NCBI GenBank assembly: GCA_038087875.1
Contig: CM075989.1
Coordinates: forward strand, 9,426,001 to 9,490,000
Source of the DNA: Malacoraja senta
Taxonomy: Eukaryota
DNA: 64,000 bases
Direction of reading: 5' to 3'
The stretch's first letter is position 1. Every line of letters starts with the position of its first letter. Position numbers and translations under genes: made by a program. Below the pieces are notes generated by a model. That model saw only the letters and a program-made list of their open reading frames with translations. It made no database searches and was not told the DNA's origin. This document shows, piece after piece, positions 4,487 through 63,078 of this stretch.

Positions 4487-5185
4487 CAAGACATTAGCCT
4501 CACGTGGAGTATTGTGTTCAGTTTTGAGTGATACTTTATTATCACATGTGAGGTTGCCACGACTTGAGGTCCTATGCTATAAGGAGAGTTTGGGCAGGTT
4601 AGGTCTTTATTCCTTGGTGCACAGTTCGCTGAGGGGTGATCTTATAGAGGTGTATAAAACCATGAGGGAAATCGACAGAGTAAATGCACAGTCATTTTCT
4701 CAGGCTCGGGGGAATTAAGGACTAGGGGGCATATGTACAAGGTGAGACGGGAAAGGGTCAACACTAACCTGAGAGGCATCCTTTTCACACAGAGGGTGGT
4801 GGGCATGTGGAACAAGCTGCCCAAGGAAGGATTTTGGAAAGAACTGCAGATGCTGATATAAATCGAAGGTAGACACAAAATGCTGGAGTAACTCAGCGGG
4901 ACAGCATCTCTGGAGAGAAGGAATCAGTCTGAAGGAGGGTCTCGACCCGAAACTTCACCCATTCCTTCTCTCCAGAGATGCTGCCTGTCCCGCAGAGTTA
5001 CTCCGGAATTTTGTGTCTGCCCAAGGAAGTAGTTGAGGCAGGCACAATAACATTCAAAACATTTGGACAGGTTGGACAGGAAGTGTTTTGAGGGATATGA
5101 CCCATACATGTTCGAATGAGATGAGCTTAGATAGGGCATCTTGGTCGGCAAGAAGGCCTTGTTACTGTATTCTGACTCTATGGCA
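4487..5185 (+). mobile_element. CR1-clade LINE 3' fragment interrupted by a Penelope-derived insert
   Basis: LGRLGLYSL...LRGDLIEVYK RT C-terminus and CR1 3' end. Confidence 0.85.
4830..5016. mobile_element. Penelope-derived short inverted-repeat element with 13-bp TSD
   Basis: CTGCCCAAGGAAG at 4817-4829 and 5017-5029; arms acacaaaatgctggagtaactcagcgggacag and ctgtcccgcagagttactccggaattttgtgt. Confidence 0.85.
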
Positions 5186-8369: not shown

Positions 8370-8465
8370 TCAGACTGAAGAAGGGTCCCGACCCGAAACG
8401 TCACCCATTCCTTCTCTCCAGAGATGCTGTCTGTCCCGCTGAGTTACTCCAGCACTTTGAGTCCA
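8370..8465 (+). mobile_element. Penelope-derived terminal fragment with hammerhead-like core
   Basis: CTGAAGA-A-GGGT-CCCG-ACCC-GAAACGTC at 8375-8402. Confidence 0.75.
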
Positions 8466-18979: not shown

Positions 18980-21830
18980 CATTTGAAATAATGGCTAACT
19001 TTTTTTGTGGTGGGTCTGGGAGGGGAAATAAAGAAGGAAAAAGTCTGGTTTGTTTCACCTTTTAAAATAAATTTAGAAGTGTAGAGACCCTTTTTTAAAT
19101 AAACAAAAAAAAAATTTTAAAAAAAGACACCATGTACAGAGAACAAAATACTATATTTTCAGTTAACTTTTGTATATAAATTCAAGACTGTCTGTCTTTT
19201 AAGGTTATTTCAGTTTACTTTGTGAAAGCAGAGTTTTTACGATGTATTTGTCTGTTTCGTGATATTCCTTTTTGTATTGTTCGATGGCATTACTTCCACA
19301 GATGACATTATTTGACTTAGACATTTTTCATTGTACTTCACTGTAGAATATTCCTTTTGGAAAGAACTGAAATGTCAATGATTGACAACGATATTTTCCT
19401 TTTTTGTGCAAATAATTTTATTATTCTTTTAAGTTATGTAAAGTATCTTGACTGTTCCTCATATCATTCCCTCTGCATTTGCAGGAAGTAGCTTTGGGGA
19501 ATGCTCAGTACCGTACAGTTTTTCACCTTTGGGGAGGGTGGCGGTGAAGTTTGTGGACGACCCCTTCACAAATTCCACATCTTCCGTTTTATAAAGTAGC
19601 ATTTTTCATGCATTAAGGAATTGTAATAAGGGAGAAAATGTATCCTTTTGTTGAACCTCTTATTTTTCTGTTTCCCTGAAAAGCTCTAACTGTAGAATGC
19701 ATCCAGTTTGCATACCTGTTATTTTTCTCTTTTAAAAAAAAAAAACTCATTTCATACACGTGCACTGTTTGCTCACTGGGCATTGTCATATTACAGCCAG
19801 CTTGCTAAGAACATGCCAGATTGGGTGTGGAATTTATCCCTGTATTTCAAGTGCCCTGTTTGGCAAAGCACCAGTTTCCACTGCATGCTCCCAGTTGAAA
19901 CGGGGATGAAACAGTTGAAATTTGGGTACTTTTGGTGTACTGATACATCGCCCCAACTAACCACACTGCCACTCATGTGACCCTCAGTTTTGTTTTCATT
20001 CACGTTTCTTTAGTCTGTTGCTTGGTCAGTGCATTATGATCTTTGCCAAGCGTGGAAGCAACCAACCAAATTGGGTTCCCCCCCCCCCCCCTCAATGAAT
20101 GGTCCACATTCTCTGTTTGGAGTGTGACTCTCTAAGATCCTTGAATCAAACAGAAGTCTCAAACAAATAGTTGGTGTGTGCACAGTTTAGTGTACTAAAG
20201 AAAGTAAATATTTTTCACAGCCTTCACCTGTTTTGCTGTTATATGTTGGTCCACAAGTTCAATTCCAAGTGCACTGGGAGGTTTTATGCAGTTGTTCCAC
20301 TAGTTTGAAAGTAATGTTTGCAAGATGGTGAAAACTACCCAGTGCTAATTTGACCCATGAACTTCGAAAATATCACATTCTGAATTTCCTGTCTGCCCTA
20401 TCAACTGATCTCAACCTGGCGTTGTGGGCAGTTATAATTGGACAGAGCATCTCATGAAGTCTTCTTCTTTCGTGTTCATCTTCCATGTTTCAAACGTTGA
20501 CATCGCTGTCATCGTCCGGCCTGAAAAGGACACAAGCTTCCGGCGACAATCAGTGGAAGCCATCACTTGTTGCAATAGATGATGGTGGTAGCAGAATTAG
20601 CTCAGGATACTTCCAGTTTTCAGCCCCGCGACATGGATGCTTCTGCTATGGGTCCATTTCATGATGTGAACGGGACACTATTGTTGGTGTTGCTCGTCCT
20701 GATAAAAGTCCATTGACCTGTATGTGAAGTGGACAAGTCAGGATTACGTTCATTTACAACATCTTACTTCCGCTCACCCCCTATATCCAACAACCTGTAG
20801 CCTATTCAAAAGATCTAGGAAAGACTGGTGGCCACTGGAAGGTGATGAGCTTTGTGCAATCATATAACAGCAAGTGGGAGAGCAAGGATGGTATAGAACA
20901 AGCTATAACCAAAAGGAGCAAATGTTGGGTAATGAAAGAGTTCTAGAAAACTTTGCAGAGAACAGCAGCAATTGGCCTATCTCAGCTGGTTTTTTGCAAA
21001 ATCTTTAGATTATAAAATTGCAAATCTTCAGGTTTTCAGCATCTGCTCCCTTGTCCTCTGACTACTTGTTTTACAACTCATTGAAAATTATAGTTGGGGG
21101 GGGGGGGGAGGAGGAGGAATTAACTGGTTTATTGAAAGTAGGTCACTAAATGGCATGGGGCTCACAGGCTGTTTAGCCGCTGGGAAGATGTTTCATGCTT
21201 TCATCGGGATTTTGTCTGCCGTATTTTCCATGTTTTGTGAACTCTGTTTTCAAATAGGGTTGAATTGAGCATTCATTGGAAATCAATACTTGGATTTGAG
21301 TGGTGCTCGTGTCAATGGCAGAGGTATCTATGTCTGAACACAGCTGGATCTTTCAGACTATTGGTTGCATTTTGACAAGTGAAGAGAATTTTAAAGAGTA
21401 AGCCAACTTGTACACATTGCTCACCTACTGTTTGGTATAGTAGGTTGTTCTAGAATTTGCAGTATTGAGAGTCTATTTCATTTGCACAAAGTGTCATTGT
21501 AAACCAGATTCTCCAAGCATGGAAACTCCCCTCTTCTGCAAATTTGTAAATTCTGTTCATCACTTCTTTGAGGGTGTCAAAGATAATTCTGATACTTTTA
21601 CTGCCTTAAATCTTTCAGAGTGCTGGCTTCTGCGACCGCATGCCAAACCAGAGAAATGGCTTTTAAAAAAAATAATTGAGTATAGTAGACCAGTGTCAGT
21701 TTGTATAAAGTACCACGTGAAAATATTTATTTCATGCATTGGAAAAGAATTGTTTACTTAATGAATGTTACCTGTTAATGTAGAGATCTTTTAGATGTAA
21801 TAAAGCAGCAGAAAGTTCCCAGTAGTGGAG
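18980..21830 (+). other. PIAS1: Putative PIAS1 3'UTR (3' end uncertain)
   Basis: Follows the stop codon. AU-rich and free of the SINE/LINE relics common elsewhere. Pumilio-type TGTATATA at 19171-19178; AATAAA at 21799-21804 (earlier AATAAA hexamers also exist near 19030-19100). Confidence 0.55.
20460..20662 (+). repeat. Unidentified ~200-bp structured element, copy 1 (in putative PIAS1 3'UTR)
   Basis: Manual alignment to the reverse complement of 50619-50820: 11 substitutions and no indels over the ~176-nt core. Confidence 0.9.
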
Positions 21831-38522: not shown

Positions 38523-38694
38523 GATTTGCCCCATTCCCTACACTCCAACAATGATCATGTCATTTCTACACTGGACGAGCTGCTGGTCATGTTGGTGATA
38601 AAAGACTTTGGAACAACTTGAGCTTGTGGAAGATGATATATAAATGCAAACCTCCCCTTTCGGAGCTCGGGGGTGATTTGTCTTGTTTCCTCAC

Positions 38695-38883
38695 CTTCCC
38701 TGTTGGTCAGCTTCTCTCCCATCTGGGTCAGCTTGGTCCTCAGCTCAGTGGCTGTTATGAAGCCTCTTTTCTCTTTGTCAGCCATCAACATGGCTTCCCG
38801 GATCTCTCTCTCGGGATCCTCCTGCTGTTGCTGCCGGTGGATGATGGTCAGGAAGGTTGAGAAATCCAGCTCGCCGTTTCTAT
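38695..38883 (-). CDS. CALML4: CALML4 exon 4 (EF-hands 2-3)
   Basis: gcaccag|AT AGA AAC GGC...GAA G|gtgag; 189 nt. (D)RNGELDFSTFLTIIHRQQQQEDPEREIREAMLMADKEKRGFITATELRTKLTQMGEKLTNRE. Confidence 0.95.
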
Positions 38884-39273
38884 CTGGTGCGGAAAGGCAA
38901 GGGATCGCAGGTTTCCACCAGCTCTGCCACTCCCTCGCCTCTCCCCCCGAGCCCCATGCGGCTTCCATTACAATTCCCCTTCTCCTCACCACTTGAACGT
39001 GCACACACATCCCCAGAGGGCGTGCGTTACTGTTGTGCAGTGGAATCCCAGCCGGTTGTTCACCTCCCTCCCGGGGATCAGAGGCAGCTGTACTCCACCA
39101 CTTTACTCACCACTAATCAGCAGTAGCACTTTAGCATCTGTTTTACAATCTCTCCATTCATAGTCATGGAGAGATACAGCACAGGAACAGGCCCTTCGGC
39201 CCACTGTGTCCATGCTGACCACCAACCACCCATTTGTTCCAATATTCCTATATAAACAGATTTTATTCACCCC

Positions 39274-39626
39274 ACGACAGATGGCGCAATGGGCTAAGTG
39301 TTCGGCTGGCAACCGGAAGGTAGCCGGTTCGAATCCCGCTTGGAGTGCATACTGTCGTTGTTGTCCTTGGGCAAGACACTTCACCCACCTTTGCCTGCGT
39401 GTGAATGTGTGTGTGAATGTGTGTGAGTGATTGGTGGTGGTCGGAGGGGCCGTAGGCGCAGATTAGCAGCCACGCTTCCGTCAGTCTGCCCCAGGGCAGC
39501 TGTGGCTACAGAAGTAGCTCACCACCACCGAGTGTGACTGAGGAGTGAATGAATAATGCGATGTAAAGCGCCTTGAGTATTAGAAAGGCGCTATATAAAT
39601 CCCATCCATTATTATTATTATTATTA
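39274..39626 (+). mobile_element. Young tRNA-derived CORE-SINE (AFC-like) with L2-type tail, nested in a minus-strand V-SINE (~39150-39835)
   Basis: A box TGGCGCAATGG 39282-39292, B box GGTTCGAATCC 39326-39336, CORE-like tgtccttgggcaagacacttcaccc, tail gtaaagcgccttgag...aaggcgctatataaat, (ATT)n. Confidence 0.85.
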
Positions 39627-44390: not shown

Positions 44391-44491
44391 CAATGCTTAC
44401 TGGATGCAATAAATACTCTGGTCACTGTGGTTACAGGATCAGGCTTCCCACACGGTCAAATTCCAGCAACCATCTGTCAGTTCATCCGACA

Positions 44492-45126
44492 TGTACACTC
44501 ACGCTCACACACTCACACTCTCTCACACACTCGCACACTCTCTCACACACTCACTCACTCGCACACTCTCTCATACACTCACTCACTCGCTCACACACTC
44601 GCACACTCTCATACACTCACTCACTCGCACACTCATACACTCACTCGCTAGCTCACACACTCACACTCTCTCATACACTCACTCGCTCACTCACACTCGC
44701 ACACTCTCTCATACACTCACGCTCACACACTCACTCACTCGCTCACACACTCGCACACTCTCTCACACACTCACTCACTCGCTCACACACCCACTCTCTC
44801 TCATACACTCATGCTCACACTCACACTCTCATACACTCACGCACATCTCTCATATGCTCCCACACTAACACTCACGCTCTCCCACTCAGTCTCTCTCTCA
44901 CACTCACTCATGCTCTGTATCATACACTCATGCTCTCACACTCTCTCCTATACACTCACACACTCACGCTCTCTCGCATACACTCACTCATGCTCTCACT
45001 GTCTCTCATACACTCACTCACGCTCACTCTTTCATACACTCACGCACACACTCAGTCTCATACATTCACACTCATGCTCACACTCGCATTCTCATACACT
45101 CATACACGTTCACGCTCATGCTCACA

Positions 45127-45195
<69 letters not shown>

Positions 45196-45213
45196 ACTCA
45201 CACTCACTCACAC
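44492..45213. repeat. Compound (CA/CT/CACT) microsatellite upstream of CALML4
   Basis: Direct inspection; pure (CA)n near 45129-45189. Confidence 0.97.
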
Positions 45214-45319
45214 AAGAGTCTAGACATAAGCACAGACAGAAGGGGGGTCCCCAGTGGAATCCTCTCTACAAGGAAGCAGTGGCATGTAATAGATATTTAT
45301 TTACGTAGTTTCACAGACT

Positions 45320-45790
45320 TGCCACCTGTTCACTTCAGCGGCCTGGAAGAGCCTGTGTACCATGTGTACGTAGACTGCAAGGTGTTGCAGCCCCTGTTTG
45401 AGTATCTAACGGAGCTGCTCCTCAGGTTGTGGCTGCATTTCACCCGACGCTCCTGATCTTTGGTCACCGACCCTGTGGGGGGAATCTCCCTGTCAGTTGT
45501 TTCTGGGCCTGGCCAAGATGGCCATTCACGGGTCCAGGCAGCGAGGATTGTACCCGAGTCGACAGCCTGGCCTTCTTCGGGGCCTACGTCCATCCTCGTG
45601 TCCCTGGAGAGGGAGCATGCCTTGTTCACAGGGACTTTGGAGGCCTTCTGTGAATGCTGGTCGCCGCGGAGGGGTTAGGTACGTTGTGGAGACGGCTGAC
45701 AATGTTGTAATCTGATGGTCGATGTTTGCAAATTGCACAAATAACTGTTTGTTACTGCAGTATATTGTAAACTGTGAATTTGTGAGAAAA
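45320..45790 (+). mobile_element. Tx1/L1-clade LINE ORF2 C-terminal fragment
   Basis: EEPVYHVYVDC zinc-knuckle remnant, LIFGH, LGLAKMAIHGSR and SLEREHA motifs across shifted frames. Confidence 0.75.
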
Positions 45791-49900: not shown

Positions 49901-50413
49901 ACCACTACCGTATCTTCTTCCACCACTGCCCCTGGCAATGTGTGCAGGCAGATGAGATCAGTTTAATGGTATCATTATTAGTACAAACATTGTGGGCTGC
50001 ACTGTTCTATGAATGTTACTCGAATCCAGAACTGTGAACAATGCAAAGAGACAACTAACAGTTATAGCATCCAGGGCAATCTCCAGATGTCACTGTAATG
50101 CTGAAAAGAGTTTGACAATGTAAAGCAGGAATCATAGCCACTGCAAAATCATAGCCGTCAGTTTTGAGCAGCCACCTCTCAAAGGTAGCAATTGTTCAAT
50201 AATAAGATAATCTGCGTTAGTTAATCTGCTTGGCCTGTATACCAGTGAATGGATGGGGTGGATCGGGGTTGGGGAGTTGGGGATGGGGCTGGCAGTGGGA
50301 AGGAATAATGGTGGTGGAGGCGTTAGAGGGATGTGGAATGGGATTGGGAGTGTTGGATGGAATCTGGATCAATTGTCTAGCACTTTTGTGGTCGAAATAT
50401 TATCATGTATGAA

Positions 50414-50536
50414 GAAGGGTCTCGACCCGAAACGTCACCCATTCCTTCTCCAGAGATGCTGCTTGTCCCGCTGAGTTCCTCCAACATTTTGTGTCTACCT
50501 TCGATTTAAACCAACATCTGTAGTTCTTTCCTACAC
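50414..50536 (+). mobile_element. Penelope-derived terminal insert with 12-bp TSD
   Basis: ATCATGTATGAA at 50402-50413 and 50537-50548. Confidence 0.85.
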
Positions 50537-50618
50537 ATCATGTATGAAACCATGACTAAGTATTGTCCAAGCTCCACCGCTATAGATATGGTCCCTTATT
50601 TGAGAGGTTGTGAAGGGA

Positions 50619-50820
50619 ATGGAAGGCCCCATAGCAGAAGTGTCCACGTCGCGGGGCTGGGAACTGGAAATATCCCGAGCTAATTCTGCTACAACCATCA
50701 TCTATTGCAACAAGTGATGGCTCCCACTGATTGTCGCCGGAAGCTTGTGTCCTTTTCAGGACGGACGATGACAGCGATGTCAACATTTGAAACATGGAAG
50801 ATGGGCAAGAAAGAGGAAGA
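50619..50820 (-). repeat. Unidentified ~200-bp structured element, copy 2 (downstream of CLN6 stop)
   Basis: Reverse complement of 20460-20662. Confidence 0.9.
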
Positions 50821-53271
50821 ATGGAATGGAACATTGTTCAATTATCAGCAAATATCCTGACTTTTGATATGACCTGAAGCTGTATTCAGCATTTTGTGTC
50901 TATCTTCAGTGTAAACCAGCATCTGCAGTTCCTTCCAATTCATACACACACATGTGTAGCACTATACGTCTCGTTGTGGGCTAATCAATGCCCCCTGACT
51001 GTAGAATAATGAGACACAGAAACATTCACGATGGCATTGTTCCTTTATCTACTCTTTAAAAAAAGTGGAAAATAACACAATTCAGCTGAAAGCAAATAAT
51101 TATCTACAAGATAAGTATATAAAACAGCAAGACCGAGTAAAGAGTAAAACACACAAATGACAATATTTTTAAAAAGTAATGTGGGGATTTAATTTTTGTC
51201 TTTAGGAGGTGATTACTGGCAATGTTTGATAACTGAATTGGTGCTCTGTAAGATGGCTGGTCTCTGGCTTGGCTGTACATGTCCAAGTGTGACACAATAC
51301 GAGTGATGCTGTTCAAGCCTTCAGATCCTTCACAGTTTCTGCATCTCCAAAAATAGGCTGCTCTTGCCAAGAAAGGACACTTTACAAAAGTTCATTTGAG
51401 TGATCACACACTCACCAACATTTTGTAGCCCCCATGCATACTCCATTTAGAAGTTCTATAGTAGTCCACTCCTGACCAATCTGTATTTTTGTCCCCTGGA
51501 TTGTTGGAATTGCATGCTTCATTTCTAAGATGAGGATTAAAATATAGGGTTCTAACTCATTATTCTGGAAATGTTCCACATTTAACACAGGATAAAAACA
51601 GTGCTTTTATTTTATAAGAAGGCAGACAAACACATCATGGCCCAATTAGCCATGGTCATAATTCCATCTGGGCCCAGCCCCAATGACTGAAACCTCCTCT
51701 ATCCTCATGTTTAAAGATGATCAACAAACAGCATCCCGGCCTGTGCCCAAAGTTGCAATTGAATAAGATTCACAGATGCATGAAAATGTAAGATTTTAAG
51801 ATTATTTTGCCAATTCCCAAAGTTTAAATTTTAATTCTACGTTACGCACCAACGCAAAAATATACAACACACAGATCGGAAGAATAAGTTCTGCCTCGAG
51901 GCAAATAAATAATTCATGTTATCTTCCAAACAAACTCAAATACATAGAAATCACATTCAATCAGTCTTCACAAGGGTAAATCTTGACGAAGTTTGATGGT
52001 AGATCTTGACTAAGTTCGAGGTTGAGAGCCCACTCTAGTTGTTTTTCCCCATTTTACACCGGGATGCAATGTTAACATCTATATGTCAACTTATTTCTCT
52101 CTGTCCTTTATAACAGAGACCAAAATTATGCTAAAATAATTTAAACGAGTTATTCCATCTCTGACACTGACAGCACCCATTCACCACTTGATTGGTCAGC
52201 TAGTTTTTATTTAAATATTGTGTCACTTCTGACACTGAATTCTTTTTTTACTTGTTCATTTATGGCGTCTAGGAATCACTTTCTTAGCCAACTCTTATTG
52301 CCCCTCAATGGCGATGAGCAGGCACCTTGGATTGTGGTCCTTCTTGTGAAGGTGATGTTGGGGAGAGAGTTCCAGGTTGTAGACCCATTAGGTGATTTTC
52401 AAGTCAGGATGGAGTGCAACTTGGAGGGGGAGACCTGTGGGTGGTGTTATTCCTGCTAACCTTGTCCTTCTTTGTAGTAGAGATAGTGGGTTTGAACGTT
52501 GCCTTTCGAGTCACCTGGGCGGTGGGCACTCTGGGTAAGTCTTGGAGACTACCTGTGGTCATCCTGTGGCAGAGAGAATGAAAGCTTAAGGTATTCGATG
52601 GGATTCCAATCAACGTGCTGCTTTGATCACAATGTATTTTAGCTTCTTCATTGTTATTGGAGTTGCATTCATCCAGGCAAGTGCAGTGTATTCCATCTTG
52701 CTCTGGATTAGTTTCTTGTCGATGCTGAAAAGGCCAGGAGGTGAGTCACTGACACCAGATCGCCAGCTTCTGCCCTGCTCTTGTAACCACAGTATTTGTC
52801 GCTGGTTCAGTTGAATGGGGATCCATGGTGAACCCAGGCCGCTAATGCTGAGGGAAGTCGGCAGGGATTACGCCAATGTTGCAACGTCTCATCTTTTCCT
52901 CATGGGTAAACTGAGCGGGTGAGCAGAAGGAGCCGGTTGTCAGGAGAGAATCAACAGTCCGTCCTTCCTCATGTGGTGGCGTCAGTGTTGGATACGGATC
53001 GGCTGCAGGAATCCCCCTCTCCATTCCCCCACCACCCCCATGACACCATCCCATCCCACCAGCTGTACCAACTCACCACCCACCCTTAATAATCTCACCC
53101 CATCACCACCCGCTTAACCTCGCCCCATCCCACCACCCCTACCAACCCCAGACCGCTGCCATCAACCTAACCCCAGCCCACCCCCACCAATCCTACCAAC
53201 TCCATTCCACCACCAACCCTCCCACTAAGCTCATATTACTCCTTAAACCAGAGGTTTGCACGAAAGGATAG

Positions 53272-55161: not shown

Positions 55162-55432
55162 CTATGGTGTCTTCTTGATGTGGAGGGTGTAATATGCCCA
55201 GGGTTCCGGCACATACATCACTCCCGGGTACTTTCGCCGGAGAATTTTGTCATTCCAAAGGAAGGCCACCCATACGGAGATCAGGACCAGCGTGATACAG
55301 AAGGAGTAAAAGAGGAAAAGGCCGTTGCTGTCCATGACCAGCCCTTTGCGTTTCTTGTGCATCACTGTAGCCATCATGGCAAAGGTGGTGAAGATATAGA
55401 GGACGAAGATCTGACCCTCTGTCACCAGGTAC
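55162..55432 (-). CDS. CLN6: CLN6 terminal coding exon
   Basis: ctttccag|[27 protein letters not shown]...DSNGLFLF...[39 protein letters not shown]. Confidence 0.96.
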
Positions 55433-55729
55433 CTGGAAAGACACAGGGGGGGGGGGGGGGGGGAAACAACCTTCAGCTCTTCAGAGGTAAAACACAGAGT
55501 GTTGGAGTAACTCAGCAGGTCAGCCAGCATCTGTGGAGAACATGATAGGCGACGGTTTGGGTCAGGACCCCTCTTCGTCTCGACCCAAAATGTCATCTAT
55601 CCATTCCTTCCACAGCTTGTTGTCTGAACTGCCGACTTATTCCAACATTTTATGTTTTGCTTAAGATTCCAAAATCTGCAGTTCATTGTGTGTCTCCTCA
55701 GGGGTTACTCAGAGTCTCCACCAAGGATG

Positions 55730-56395
55730 GTAGACAAAAAGCTGGAGAAACTCAGCGGGTGAGGCAGCATCTATGGAGCGAAGGAATGGGTGACGTTTCG
55801 GGTCGAGACACTGATGTGGGGGTGGGGGTCGGGAAGAAGAAAGGAAGAGGCGGAGACAGTGGGCTGTAGGAGAGCTGGGAAGGGGAGGGGAACCAGGGAG
55901 AAAGCAAGGACTACCAGAAATTGGAGAAGTCAATGTTCATACCGCTGCGGTGTAGACTACCCAAGCGAAATATGAGGTACTGCTCCTCCAATTTGCGCTG
56001 GGCCTCACTCTGGCCATGGAGGAGGCCCAGGACAGAAAGGTCAGATTCAGAATGGGAGGGGGAGTTGAAGTGCTGAGCCACCGGGAGATCAGGTATGTTA
56101 TTGCGAACTGAGCGGAGGTGTTGGGCGAAGCGATCGTCAAGCCTGCGCTTGGTCTCACCGATGTAGAGCAGTTGACACTTAGAACAGCGGATGCAATAGA
56201 TGAGGTTGGATGAAGTGCAGGTGAACCTCTGCCACACCTGGAAAGACTGCTTGGGTCCATGGATGGAGTCGAGGGGGGAGGTAAAGCGACAAGTGTAGCA
56301 TTTCCTGCGGTTGCAAGGGAAAGTACCAGGGTGGTTTGGGTGGGAAGGGACGAATTGACCAAGGAGCTATGGAGGGAGCGGTCTTTGCAGAAAGT
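55730..56395 (-). mobile_element. Penelope-like retroelement 3' fragment (GIY-YIG endonuclease)
   Basis: FTCTSSNLIYCIRCSKCQLLYIGETKRRLDDRFAQH...PVAQHFN...RKLEEQYLIFRLGSL...GMN. Confidence 0.92.
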
Positions 56396-59230: not shown

Positions 59231-59249
59231 TACCATGGAGTGGGGGGGA

Positions 59250-60198
<949 letters not shown>

Positions 60199-61259
60199 AT
60201 GCTAGACTGAAATAGAGGGAGGGCAAGTTAAGGAAATGAGCAAAGTTTGCTGTAGAGGAAAGTATTTGAGCAAATGTGAGTGATGTGAAGACAAGACATT
60301 GATCGACTGAAAGAACAATAGAAACAAAAACAGAAGAAGCTAGAGTAGGAGAGAGGGGCGGTGCGTGGGGAGTGACAGGGACTATGGGATGGTGTGTGGT
60401 AGAGGGGGCGGGGGAGGGAGGGATATCTGCCTTGTGTCATCACTGATGTTGCTGCGAATCTTGGGCTGAGCCACAGTGACATGTCTATGCTGGTAAATGC
60501 TGGGAGCTGCCAGCACACCTGGCAACATCTGTGGCAGGCAGGCAGGACAGACGGGCGATGGCTGGGACCTGGAACCTTGGGCAGTGGTGGGTTCAGCAGA
60601 TCAAGGACAGGATGTCAATGAGGAACGGTTTCCCACGCGGTGCTGGCTGACCCGTTGGCCTGTTGGACAGGGTAGAGCCGCCTCTGACTGCTTCAAACCA
60701 GTTCCTCCCAGGATTCAGGGACAATGGAAGTTAGGCAACACCCCGTGAATGTGAAACCCATCAAGGACTCTGGTTAACCCTTCCCTGCACCAGGTTTGCA
60801 AACCCATCAGAGGGACAAGCTGAAGATGCAGCGCTGAGGAAATGGATTGGGAGAGATTCTAAAACCAAAACACAAAGTGCTGGATTTACTCAGCGGGTCA
60901 GGCAGCATCTGTGGAGGGAATAGACGGACAACGTTTGCTTCGGGACCCTTCAGACTCTGAAGAAGGGTCCCAACGTGAAGCATTACTGACCCGTTCCCTC
61001 CACAGATGCTGCCTGACCTGTTGAGTTACTCCAGCACTTTGTGCTTTGGTCTAATTTCCAGCATTTGCAGTCTCAAGATTCAAAAGCTGTCGTCTGGACA
61101 ATGAGGAGCCAGCCTGTAATTGGTGGATGGATGGGTGGGGGGGGGGGGGGAGAGGGGGGAGAGGGGGGGGAGAGAGAGTGGTGGTAGTTTGTCAGTGGGG
61201 GGTGCAATGGCCATTGATAAAGCCAAATATTGGCAATGGCGAATTGAAGGGCTGTTTTA

Positions 61260-61606: not shown

Positions 61607-62521
61607 TAACACATCAACATCAATAAGAATGTCTTCCCTTAGGAAAGGGAGGCCATTCAGCCCTAACCCCAACCCAAAACATTGAGAATGTGCAAACACC
61701 CCACAGACAGCAGCCGAGGTCAGGATCGAACCTGGGTTCCTACAGCAGCAGCATGAGCTGTTGTGCCCACACTCTGTCAGCAGAAGGTGACAGGGGTCTT
61801 AATGTAGTCAAACATCCCAAAGAGGTTCACAGGAGTGTTAGGGAACAGGAGGAAATGAGATTGATGTTTTCAGGAAGACCCACGAGGAAGACAGTGAGGT
61901 GGGGAAATGGCAAAGTGCTGCTCAGCTAATGAAGTGCCTGCAAAATAAAAGAAACAAAGAACTGCTGATGCACGTTTACAAAAACAAGCTTTTTGTGTCC
62001 ACCTCTCACACTATCATCGACTTGTACTCTAATTGTGTTTTTGCACTGATGTCTTGTTTTTTCCAGTCTTTTTCTATTCATTGTCTTGTAGAATTTATAT
62101 CTGATTTATGTTTTTGGGTATTGCCTGTGCCTTTGATGCTGCTGCAAGCAAGGTTTTCAATGCATCTGTAGCTCAACTGTACTTGCGCATGTTACAATAT
62201 ACTGGATCGACTGTGAGTCCAGGCCCTGGGGAGGGGCACTGGTTGTGGGCTGAACAACCTTTTGATGATGGACCCTACTGTGGTGTCTTTCTTTACATGA
62301 GCGCCACCTGGTGGGATGTCATCAGTTCCTCCGACTCTGCTCATTACCAGCACAAGTCTGCAGTTATTACAGATCTTGTTAAATCAAAATGTTGTTGGAT
62401 TTTCCCCAGGCACCGCTCATTATTAGATTTGTTATTGGTTTCCCCCTGAGACCTACCCATATGTCTGCCTGTGTGTCTGTCTCTCTCCCTCTCTCTTTCT
62501 CTCTCTCTCTCTCTTTCTCTC

Positions 62522-63078
62522 CTTATCGCTTTACCTCCCCCCTTGACTCCATTCAAGGACCCAAGCTGTCTTTCCAGGTGCGGCAGAGGTTCCCCTGCAC
62601 CTCCTCCAACCTCATCTATTGCATCCCCTGCTCTAGATGTCAGCTGCTCTACATCGGTGAGACCAAGCGCAGGCTTGGCGATCGCTTCGCCCAACACCTC
62701 CGCTCAGTTCGCACTAACCAACCTGATCTCCCAGTGGCTCAGCACTTCAACTCCCCCTCCCATTCCGAATCCGACCTGGGCCTCCTCCATGGCCAGAGTG
62801 AGGACCACTGTAAAGTGGAGGAGCAGCATCTCATATTTCGCTTGGGCAGTTTGCACCCCAGCGGTATGAACATTGACTTCTCCAATTTCAGGTAGTCTTT
62901 ACTTTCTCCTCCCTTCTCAGCTCTCCCTGAGCCCACTGTCTCCACCTCTTCCTTTCTTCTTCCCGCCCGCCCCCACCCTCACATCAGTCTGAAGATGGGT
63001 CTCGACCCGAACTTTGCTATTTCCTTCGCTCCATAGACGCTGCCTCACCTGCTGATTTCTCCAGCATTTTGTCTACCT
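62522..63078 (+). mobile_element. Penelope-like retroelement 3' fragment (GIY-YIG) abutting a (CT)n tract
   Basis: FPCTSSNLIYCIPCSRCQLLYIGETKRRLGDRFAQH...GMNIDFSNFR*, followed by the cagtctgaagatgggtctcgacccg terminus. Confidence 0.92.

Follow-up and report, generated by a model that had tools for sequence, protein, structure and literature searches.

In the 64,000-nt stretch of the Malacoraja senta genome analyzed here (GCA_038087875.1, contig CM075989.1, positions 9,426,001 to 9,490,000; hereafter the window, numbered from its first letter), the repeated element found at 50625 is very probably a non-coding retroposon of 195 nt, likely derived by internal deletion from a long interspersed nuclear element (LINE) of the Vingi clade, the 5′ 66 nt of which are predicted to form a ribozyme of the hepatitis delta virus (HDV)-like kind that would free the RNA at its first base. 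Its most likely layout is ribozyme, 5′ untranslated region (UTR), probable open reading frame (ORF) start and LINE 3′ end. The logic of such an element is known from NARTc-like retroposons, and its significance lies in the identity of its ribozyme.

Copies, boundaries and target sites

The initial annotation had reported a duplicated element in this region, and two copies are indeed present in the window, in opposite orientation and between unrelated flanks (copy A, 50625-50820, +; copy B, 20655-20460, -), with 92% identity over 196 nt. Each copy spans 195 nt and is followed by a 12-nt repeat of the bases abutting its first base (G+1), taken as a target site duplication (TSD).

50625..50819 (+): copy A, non-autonomous retroposon of 195 nt, delimited by alignment with copy B, by 5′ and 3′ loose ends in four sequencing runs and by TSDs
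50613..50624 (+): left TSD of copy A, abutting G+1, 11 of 12 positions identical to 50820-31
50820..50831 (+): right TSD of copy A; 11 of 20000 random 12-mers match equally well
20461..20655 (-): copy B, 195 nt, ribozyme probably decayed, with one mismatch each in helices P1, P3 and P1.1 (Rfam RF00622, 28.6 bits, under the cut-off of 35)
20449..20667 (-): copy B including its TSDs (20667-20656 and 20460-20449), identical at 10 of 12 positions; 29 of 20000 random 12-mers do equally well

The extent of the family was assessed in assembled contigs. Part of the stretch is contained in 20 of the 24 listed runs (11 studies, seven organisms), four of which (X1, X4, X17 and X19) were examined. In these, 1568, 3259, 137 and 8 contigs align to the element and, among the loose ends listed, 79, 144, 12 and 2 contigs (X1, X4, X17 and X19, respectively) have a loose 5′ end at 50625, as compared with 15 contigs at 50624 and 23 at 50626. 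These 237 contigs change to unrelated flank exactly at G50625, and the agreement among their flanks (0.37-0.60) indicates that the flanks differ. Since loose ends with differing flanks start at this base, the predicted cleavage site coincides with the 5′ boundary of the repeat. The 3′ loose ends of the family fall at 50814-22, the commoner 3′ form being GGACACGA followed by (GAA)n. In run X1 summed contig depth reaches about 41,000 within the element and 5.8 in the flank, a difference that is not taken as copy number.

The element is a family of dispersed copies with a 5′ boundary at G+1, 12-nt TSDs and a (GAA)n tail. Being dispersed, multi-copy, flanked by TSDs and devoid of coding capacity, it has the properties of a bipartite non-autonomous LINE. 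The head of a classical short interspersed nuclear element (SINE) is not seen: the tRNA caller reports none at the element, Rfam gives no further match there, and the start is G+1.

The same abundance of small, non-coding, ribozyme-bearing copies could be expected of a retrozyme-like or viroid-like circular RNA replicon, the monomers of which are reverse-transcribed into the genome. Such an origin is most improbable, given that every copy has a single ribozyme and that the copies are dispersed monomers with TSDs. Also, no 3′-to-5′ go-back joint and no tandem or circular joint is listed in the four runs, for which just three skip joints are listed, although contigs may drop rare forms. Ungapped patterns gave no match in viral and metagenome contigs, nor did the gapped pattern in viral and prokaryote genome contigs.

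Predicted ribozyme fold

The Rfam model CPEB3_ribozyme (RF00622) matches copy A at 50613-50690 on the + strand with 38.6 bits (E 8.9e-7; cut-off 35), and this is the sole Rfam match at the gathering threshold in the whole window. The predicted parts of the fold are as follows.

50625..50690 (+): CPEB3-type ribozyme of the HDV-like class, predicted to cleave immediately 5′ of G50625, from Rfam RF00622 and a zero-mismatch descriptor
within 50625..50658 (+): P1 (50625-30 with 50653-58, 6 bp, G.U at +1) and J1/2 (50631-32)
within 50625..50658 (+): 5′ strand of P2 (50633-39), P3 (50640-42 with 50650-52) and L3 (50643-49)
within 50659..50690 (+): P1.1 partners GG 50659-60, pairing with C50644-45, and a weak P4 of about 3-5 bp
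within 50659..50690 (+): J4/2 with the predicted catalytic C50680, and 3′ strand of P2 (50684-90)

Copy A fits a pseudoknot descriptor of this fold with zero mismatch, all pairs being possible in P1 (6/6), P2 (7/7), P3 (3/3) and P1.1 (2/2), as against 5/6, 7/7, 2/3 and 1/2 in copy B. The only zero-mismatch site on both strands of the window is 50625(+), and none of 25 shuffles contains one; at the two-mismatch level, where copy B fits, shuffles average 0.56 matches. Copy A has the nested double pseudoknot of HDV-like ribozymes, an arrangement that minimum-free-energy folding cannot display, with G+1 paired to a pyrimidine at the end of P1. In addition, when compared with the descriptor of PMC6326823, its L3 (UCCACGU) carries the U..C-G signature and C50680 stands first in J4/2. 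By every structural feature tested, save details of J4/2 and P4, the first 66 nt of copy A are predicted to be an HDV-like ribozyme.

The table of family variants covers positions from 50649 on. Some contigs of X17 and X19 carry a G inserted behind 50652, which suggests relatives with a 7-nt P1 strand. Within 50645-50735, divergent subfamilies in these two runs also show C>G at 50650 and at 50657, together with T>C/G at 50690; these may be additional compensatory variants of P1, P2 or P3.

A full-length LINE with the same ribozyme

A gapped P2-L3-P2 pattern recovered six metagenome loci that represent two insertions, each assembled three times. One locus, L006, contains a complete element, about 3.17 kb long and with a perfect 14-nt TSD. 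At its 5′ end lies the ribozyme, G+1 being preceded by an additional G; an ATG follows 196 nt downstream. The ORF is split by stops and frameshifts into pieces that match apurinic/apyrimidinic endonuclease (APE; E 0.0055 and 1.6e-5, both under Pfam cut-offs) and reverse transcriptase (RT; E 8e-14 and 2e-17), with a C-terminal CCHC motif; a Pfam search gave no RNase H match in this LINE. A 939-aa Anolis APE-RT protein aligns along the whole element and has 62% identity to the RT piece; an RNase H Pfam domain occurs in none of the 120 homologues listed of 470 found. The 3′ end reads GACACGA-(ATC)n. Vingi elements are described as compact, single-ORF and RNase H-less (PMC13708176), and the LINE fits this clade because it has a compact single ORF with APE and RT and no RNase H match.

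The ribozymes of two of these loci score well above the RF00622 cut-off (L002, 55.6 bits; L003, 63.2 bits), and the 5′ end of the window element aligns to the L006 LINE with a score of 57-58, reached by 0 of 200 shuffles. Outside P1 and P4, copy A and the L002 ribozyme have the same base at 38 of 40 positions, 28 of which were fixed by the search pattern. P1 was left free by the pattern, and there copy A differs from the LINE by two G-C to C-G swaps and by one pair in length; the covariation score of this helix is equalled by 14 of 500 shuffles. The comparison is suggestive, though not strong in statistical terms, of genuine compensatory changes in ribozyme P1, between this element and the full-length LINE.

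On the minus strand of L006 the (ATC)n tail runs straight into a TSD starting with ATC, which suggests microhomology priming. The second LINE copy, L003, contains an insertion of about 960 nt at about 1381-2347.

Segments of named Vingi elements are printed in the supplement of PMC5786205, three from 5′ ends (Vingi-2_Gav, Vingi-4_Crp and Vingi-1_BF) and one from positions 395-451 (Vingi-2_SPur). By eye, all four contain the same ribozyme sequence, as does the alligator SINE2-1_AMi of the same supplement, which also has a GGACACGA-type 3′ end. In the excerpts of that paper the Vingi segments are described without mention of a ribozyme, and Vingi is not among the six clades given as ribozyme-bearing.

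Another ribozyme-bearing clade, RTE or Ingi, is a very unlikely source of the element. Both clades yield bipartite derivatives and carry 5′ ribozymes, the 3′ region of BovB likewise contains GGACACGA (PMC5786205 and its supplement), and L1Tc of the Ingi clade makes TSDs of 11-12 nt (PMC3383444). However, the ribozyme motifs of the supplement excerpt are those of Vingi elements and of the Vingi-derived SINE2-1_AMi, and the ribozyme-carrying LINE, at about 3.2 kb and with no RNase H, fits Vingi and not Ingi. An RTE origin had been the initial guess, and was dropped once ribozyme sequence appeared in the Vingi and SINE2-1_AMi segments of the supplement.

Body and 3′ end

Downstream of the ribozyme, three further parts of copy A were delimited.

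50695..50720 (+): 7-bp hairpin of the 5′ UTR, with the ATG 50717-19 in its 3′ strand (pair table and sequence)
50717..50782 (+): probable vestige of the ORF start of the parent LINE, ~22 codons (M...SFSGRTMTAMS), from its rank with a position-specific scoring matrix
50783..50819 (+): putative LINE-derived 3′ terminus, a GACACGA-type motif (decayed in copy A) with a (GAA)n tail, from the loose-end consensus of X1, X4 and X17

The SFSGRTMTAMS frame from ATG 50717 ranks 1-2 among 127,930 six-frame positions with an 11-column profile built from 16 homologous ORF starts. A deletion junction near 50783 is moderately hinted at by this putative ORF-start remnant. The GACACGA-type motif and the position of the tail are common to the element, the L006 LINE and SINE2-1_AMi, but the last 60 nt show no significant alignment to the 3′ end of L006, 14-18 of 200 shuffles scoring as high. 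The hairpin 50695-50720 buries the probable ancestral start codon, and a role in controlling translation of the parent LINE is conceivable.

Hairpins, strand and covariation

The initial annotation had proposed that the element folds into serial hairpins, that several differences between the copies preserve pairing, and that selection on RNA structure, as in a cis-regulatory element or an undescribed non-coding RNA or ribozyme, is the cause. The hairpin strings it quoted are real sequence, but they are the reverse complement of the element, and the strand called sense is its antisense. Likewise, a predicted ribozyme of conserved structure is present, but with another fold, on the opposite strand and of the known HDV-like class; ribozyme P2, read on the antisense strand, accounts for the long-range helix GTAGCAGAA/TTCTGCTAT.

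Selected serial-hairpin structure was not borne out, since folding does not go beyond chance and no family-level covariation is seen in the 3′ half. The 202-nt region has shuffling z-scores of +0.24 (+) and -1.38 (-), and none of 16 tests (two copies, four regions, two strands) reaches z = -2. The lowest value, -1.81, belongs to the 3′ half of copy A on the strand favoured by the annotation, and is equalled by 10 of 200 shuffles.

Among the 16 differences between copies A and B there is no double change within a ribozyme helix. The family does not share the G-C/A-U double change that had been singled out (50660 G>A with 50676 C>T): the CpG-type change 50676 C>T accounts for 62%, 85%, 65% and 0% of depth in the four runs, and 50660 G>A is absent from the variants listed at 5% of depth or above in each run. 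At 50661 the G is peculiar to copy A, with A at 83-100% of depth. As to the other pairing-preserving differences, the alleles at 50723 and 50748 do favour hairpins, but 50778 T>G (15-45% of depth) breaks the closing pair of the TGACA/TGTCA hairpin. The commoner allele at 50723, C (67-100% of depth), pairs on the antisense strand only, as G.U, and 50748 T>C (67-97% of depth) adds a G-C pair that strengthens the GTCCT/AGGAC hairpin on both strands.

A minus-strand cis-regulatory element or new non-coding RNA with serial hairpins, maintained by host selection, is therefore scarcely credible, as no z-score is significant and the double change is not shared by the family, and because boundaries, TSDs and tail define a + strand retroposon to which thousands of contigs align. 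What speaks for it is that the hairpins exist, that copy A gives somewhat better folding on the minus strand (z -1.38 to -1.81), that the common 50723 allele pairs on that strand only and that the neighbouring host genes lie on the minus strand. The GCTTCC, GTCCT and TGACA hairpins fall within 50717-50782, and the hairpins of the 3′ half are best explained as inherited 5′ UTR and ORF-start sequence, with no separate RNA gene.

An Rfam match to HIV_GSL3 at 50763-50839 (E 0.82) is far under the cut-off and was discarded as chance. No hammerhead core was found inside the element by pattern scan; the 3′ half gives an nhmmer match (E 0.006) to a hammerhead-bearing repeat at 4957-5084, which is probably compositional. 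A scan for bacterial promoters and terminators, unsuited to this host, found nothing.

Weighing the proposed ribozyme-bearing retroposon

Several results speak against a Vingi-derived retroposon with a ribozyme at its 5′ end. The pseudoknot descriptor was composed after the sequence had been seen, for which reason the Rfam score is the more independent test. P4 is weak (3-5 bp, -1.2 to -1.6 kcal/mol). The antigenomic HDV ribozyme carries CUAA in J4/2. The J4/2 of copy A is also CUAA, as is that of the LINE ribozyme, and falls outside the CRRA descriptor of PMC6326823. The P1 covariation comprises four sequences from two lineages, and 194 of 500 shuffles reach two double-changed pairs. The runs are guessed to be RNA, their contigs carry neither strand nor end information, and 12 and 2 of these contigs read past G+1 into flank. 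The placement of L006 in Vingi relies on anatomy and on similarity judged by eye, and no autonomous partner was found in the 64-kb window by tblastn with the LINE ORF pieces and four full-length homologues. Also, bases 75-195 have no significant match in L006 LINE DNA (best, 11 of 200 shuffles). The columns of the ORF-start profile were picked after the match had been seen, and with four more columns the frame ranks 247-248; a hidden Markov model of 16 of 120 homologue N-termini, run against 2777 window peptides, missed this remnant.

Some of these points would also suit a family in which the ribozyme is a dead relic and the 5′ end is set by an internal RNA polymerase II promoter at +1, like Pr77 in L1Tc. 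This possibility, which we regard as unlikely, accords with the 6-bp P1 and weak P4, with the three broken pairs of copy B and with RNA-type contigs that read past G+1; moreover, the first 77 nt of L1Tc are both promoter and ribozyme (PMC3383444). On the other hand, compared with the LINE, P1 has been remade through two double-sided changes, for which a promoter would have no need. A P1 of 6 or 7 bp is normal in HDV-like ribozymes (PMC4908430; PMC3774820) and P4 is dispensable (PMC3774820), and copy A retains every core pair.

Relation to the mammalian CPEB3 ribozyme

Outside P4, the L003 ribozyme agrees with the printed Rfam CPEB3 consensus at 46 of 49 positions, including 14/14 of P1; of the 22 positions left free by the search pattern, 20 match. 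For copy A the figure outside P1 and P4 is 30 of 35 positions, with P2 matching throughout (14/14). By eye, Vingi-2_Gav matches the consensus at 46 of 48 positions, the base of P4 being common to both, and SINE2-1_AMi has the full 7-bp P4 stem in common with it. Convergence of the LINE and CPEB3 ribozymes is unlikely, since only about six positions are invariant in the HDV-like fold (PMC8256844), and from the extent of the match outside P4 the CPEB3 ribozyme is likely a domesticated Vingi 5′ end. CPEB3-like ribozymes occur at LINE ends in lancelet, in crocodilians and in the metagenome host, the intronic copy is confined to mammals (PMC8233481) and Vingi traces are recorded in the human genome as X12_LINE (PMC5753468), so that a passage from LINE to intron would be the simplest direction.

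It is probable, then, that the Vingi clade carries one ancient, sequence-conserved 5′ HDV-like ribozyme, from invertebrates to fishes and crocodilians, and that the CPEB3 ribozyme is what remains, after domestication, of a single Vingi or Vingi-derived insertion. The ribozyme of the window is a relative of the CPEB3 ribozyme and not its orthologue: it is multi-copy and mobile, in contrast to the single copy in CPEB3 intron 2, it differs in P1 and P4, and it has a 2-bp P1.1.

This would give a concrete, testable origin to the CPEB3 ribozyme, one of a handful of ribozymes in mammals for which a phenotype (memory) has been reported. If correct, Vingi elements would be the missing outgroup for its evolution and would join the ribozyme-bearing LINE clades, and the element family would scatter thousands of CPEB3-like cleavage sites across a vertebrate genome. 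There may also be implications for Vingi-based gene-insertion tools in which the native 5′ UTR is retained.

No statement of a Vingi origin of the CPEB3 ribozyme was found in the searchable literature, outside which the key ribozyme and Vingi papers fall. The same literature holds no paper joining Vingi and CPEB3 ("Tvingi" being a false match) and none on the CPEB3 ribozyme and retrotransposons in sharks, and no ribozyme is assigned to Vingi in the excerpts of the relevant Vingi literature. HDV-like ribozymes were reportedly described by Webb in 2009 in sea urchin, lancelet and lamprey. Vingi ends may be among these, listed under different names, so that part of the link may be known already.

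Proposed mobilization and known systems

L1Tc/NARTc (PMC3383444), together with R2 and RTE (PMC8256844, PMC6765202, PMC3774820), provide the analogy from which we infer transcription, self-cleavage at G+1, trans-mobilization by a Vingi protein and target-primed reverse transcription. Transcription of the copies would start at host promoters and read through into them, or at an internal promoter like that of L1Tc, and self-cleavage would strip the upstream host RNA, leaving a 5′-OH end. The ORF protein of an autonomous Vingi would then bind the GACACGA-(GAA)n 3′ end in trans, and a full copy, including the ribozyme, would be inserted by target-primed reverse transcription with a 12-nt TSD. Inserted copies would subsequently decay, as copy B has.

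The closest parallel is offered by NARTc and RIME, derived from L1Tc and ingi in trypanosomes, which are also short and non-coding, join a LINE 5′ end to its last ~30 nt, carry an HDV-like ribozyme cutting at +1 and have TSDs of about 12 nt (PMC3383444). Unlike these, the window element has a vertebrate host, probably belongs with the sister clade Vingi, bears a CPEB3-type ribozyme and ends in a microsatellite tail instead of poly(A). Known Vingi derivatives (the deletion products of Vingi-1_EE, SINE2-1_ACar and SINE2-1_AMi) likewise combine a Vingi 5′ segment with a GACACGA-type 3′ end. The window element differs from them in its remodelled P1 (6 bp, two swapped pairs) and in having no tRNA head, so that its ribozyme is terminal. 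The 5′ HDV-like ribozymes of R2 and RTE share the fold and a proposed role in 5′ processing (PMC8256844, PMC6765202, PMC3774820), but these are other LINE clades, and R2 is specific for ribosomal DNA and often takes P1 from host sequence.

Window neighbourhood

Copy A sits between a CLN6 exon and an EF-hand exon, and would not cut their transcripts because it is antisense to both. These exons mark the host as a vertebrate, and its SINE and Penelope-type repeats are those of a cartilaginous fish. Other features of the window are listed below.

55165-55596 (-): C-terminal coding exon of CLN6 (E 1e-47)
38558-39106 (-): EF-hand exon (domain match), which we take, by synteny, to be possibly CALML4
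8375-8402 (+), 57147 (+) and 58525 (-), with a degenerate copy at about 50411-50437 (+): hammerhead-like motif (pattern scan)
55914-56366 (-) and 62383-62892 (+): remnants of GIY-YIG endonuclease (Pfam E 6e-6 and 0.0016)
39274-39348 (+): tRNA-Ala(GGC) call (ARAGORN)

The hammerhead-like motif belongs to a second short repeat, more abundant than the first, with a minimal core (CTGAAGA, a short stem and GAAAC) that gives eight pattern matches in the window, three of them clean. Such a minimal motif is known from Penelope-like elements. The GIY-YIG remnants lie in the largest inverted repeat pair and are probably Penelope-like elements, and the tRNA-Ala(GGC), which has an unusual anticodon for a vertebrate, is probably the head of a tRNA-derived SINE. 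Finally, 44400-45500 and 59240-60230 are occupied by long, imperfect tandem arrays, which have units of about 8 nt and a strong strand skew.
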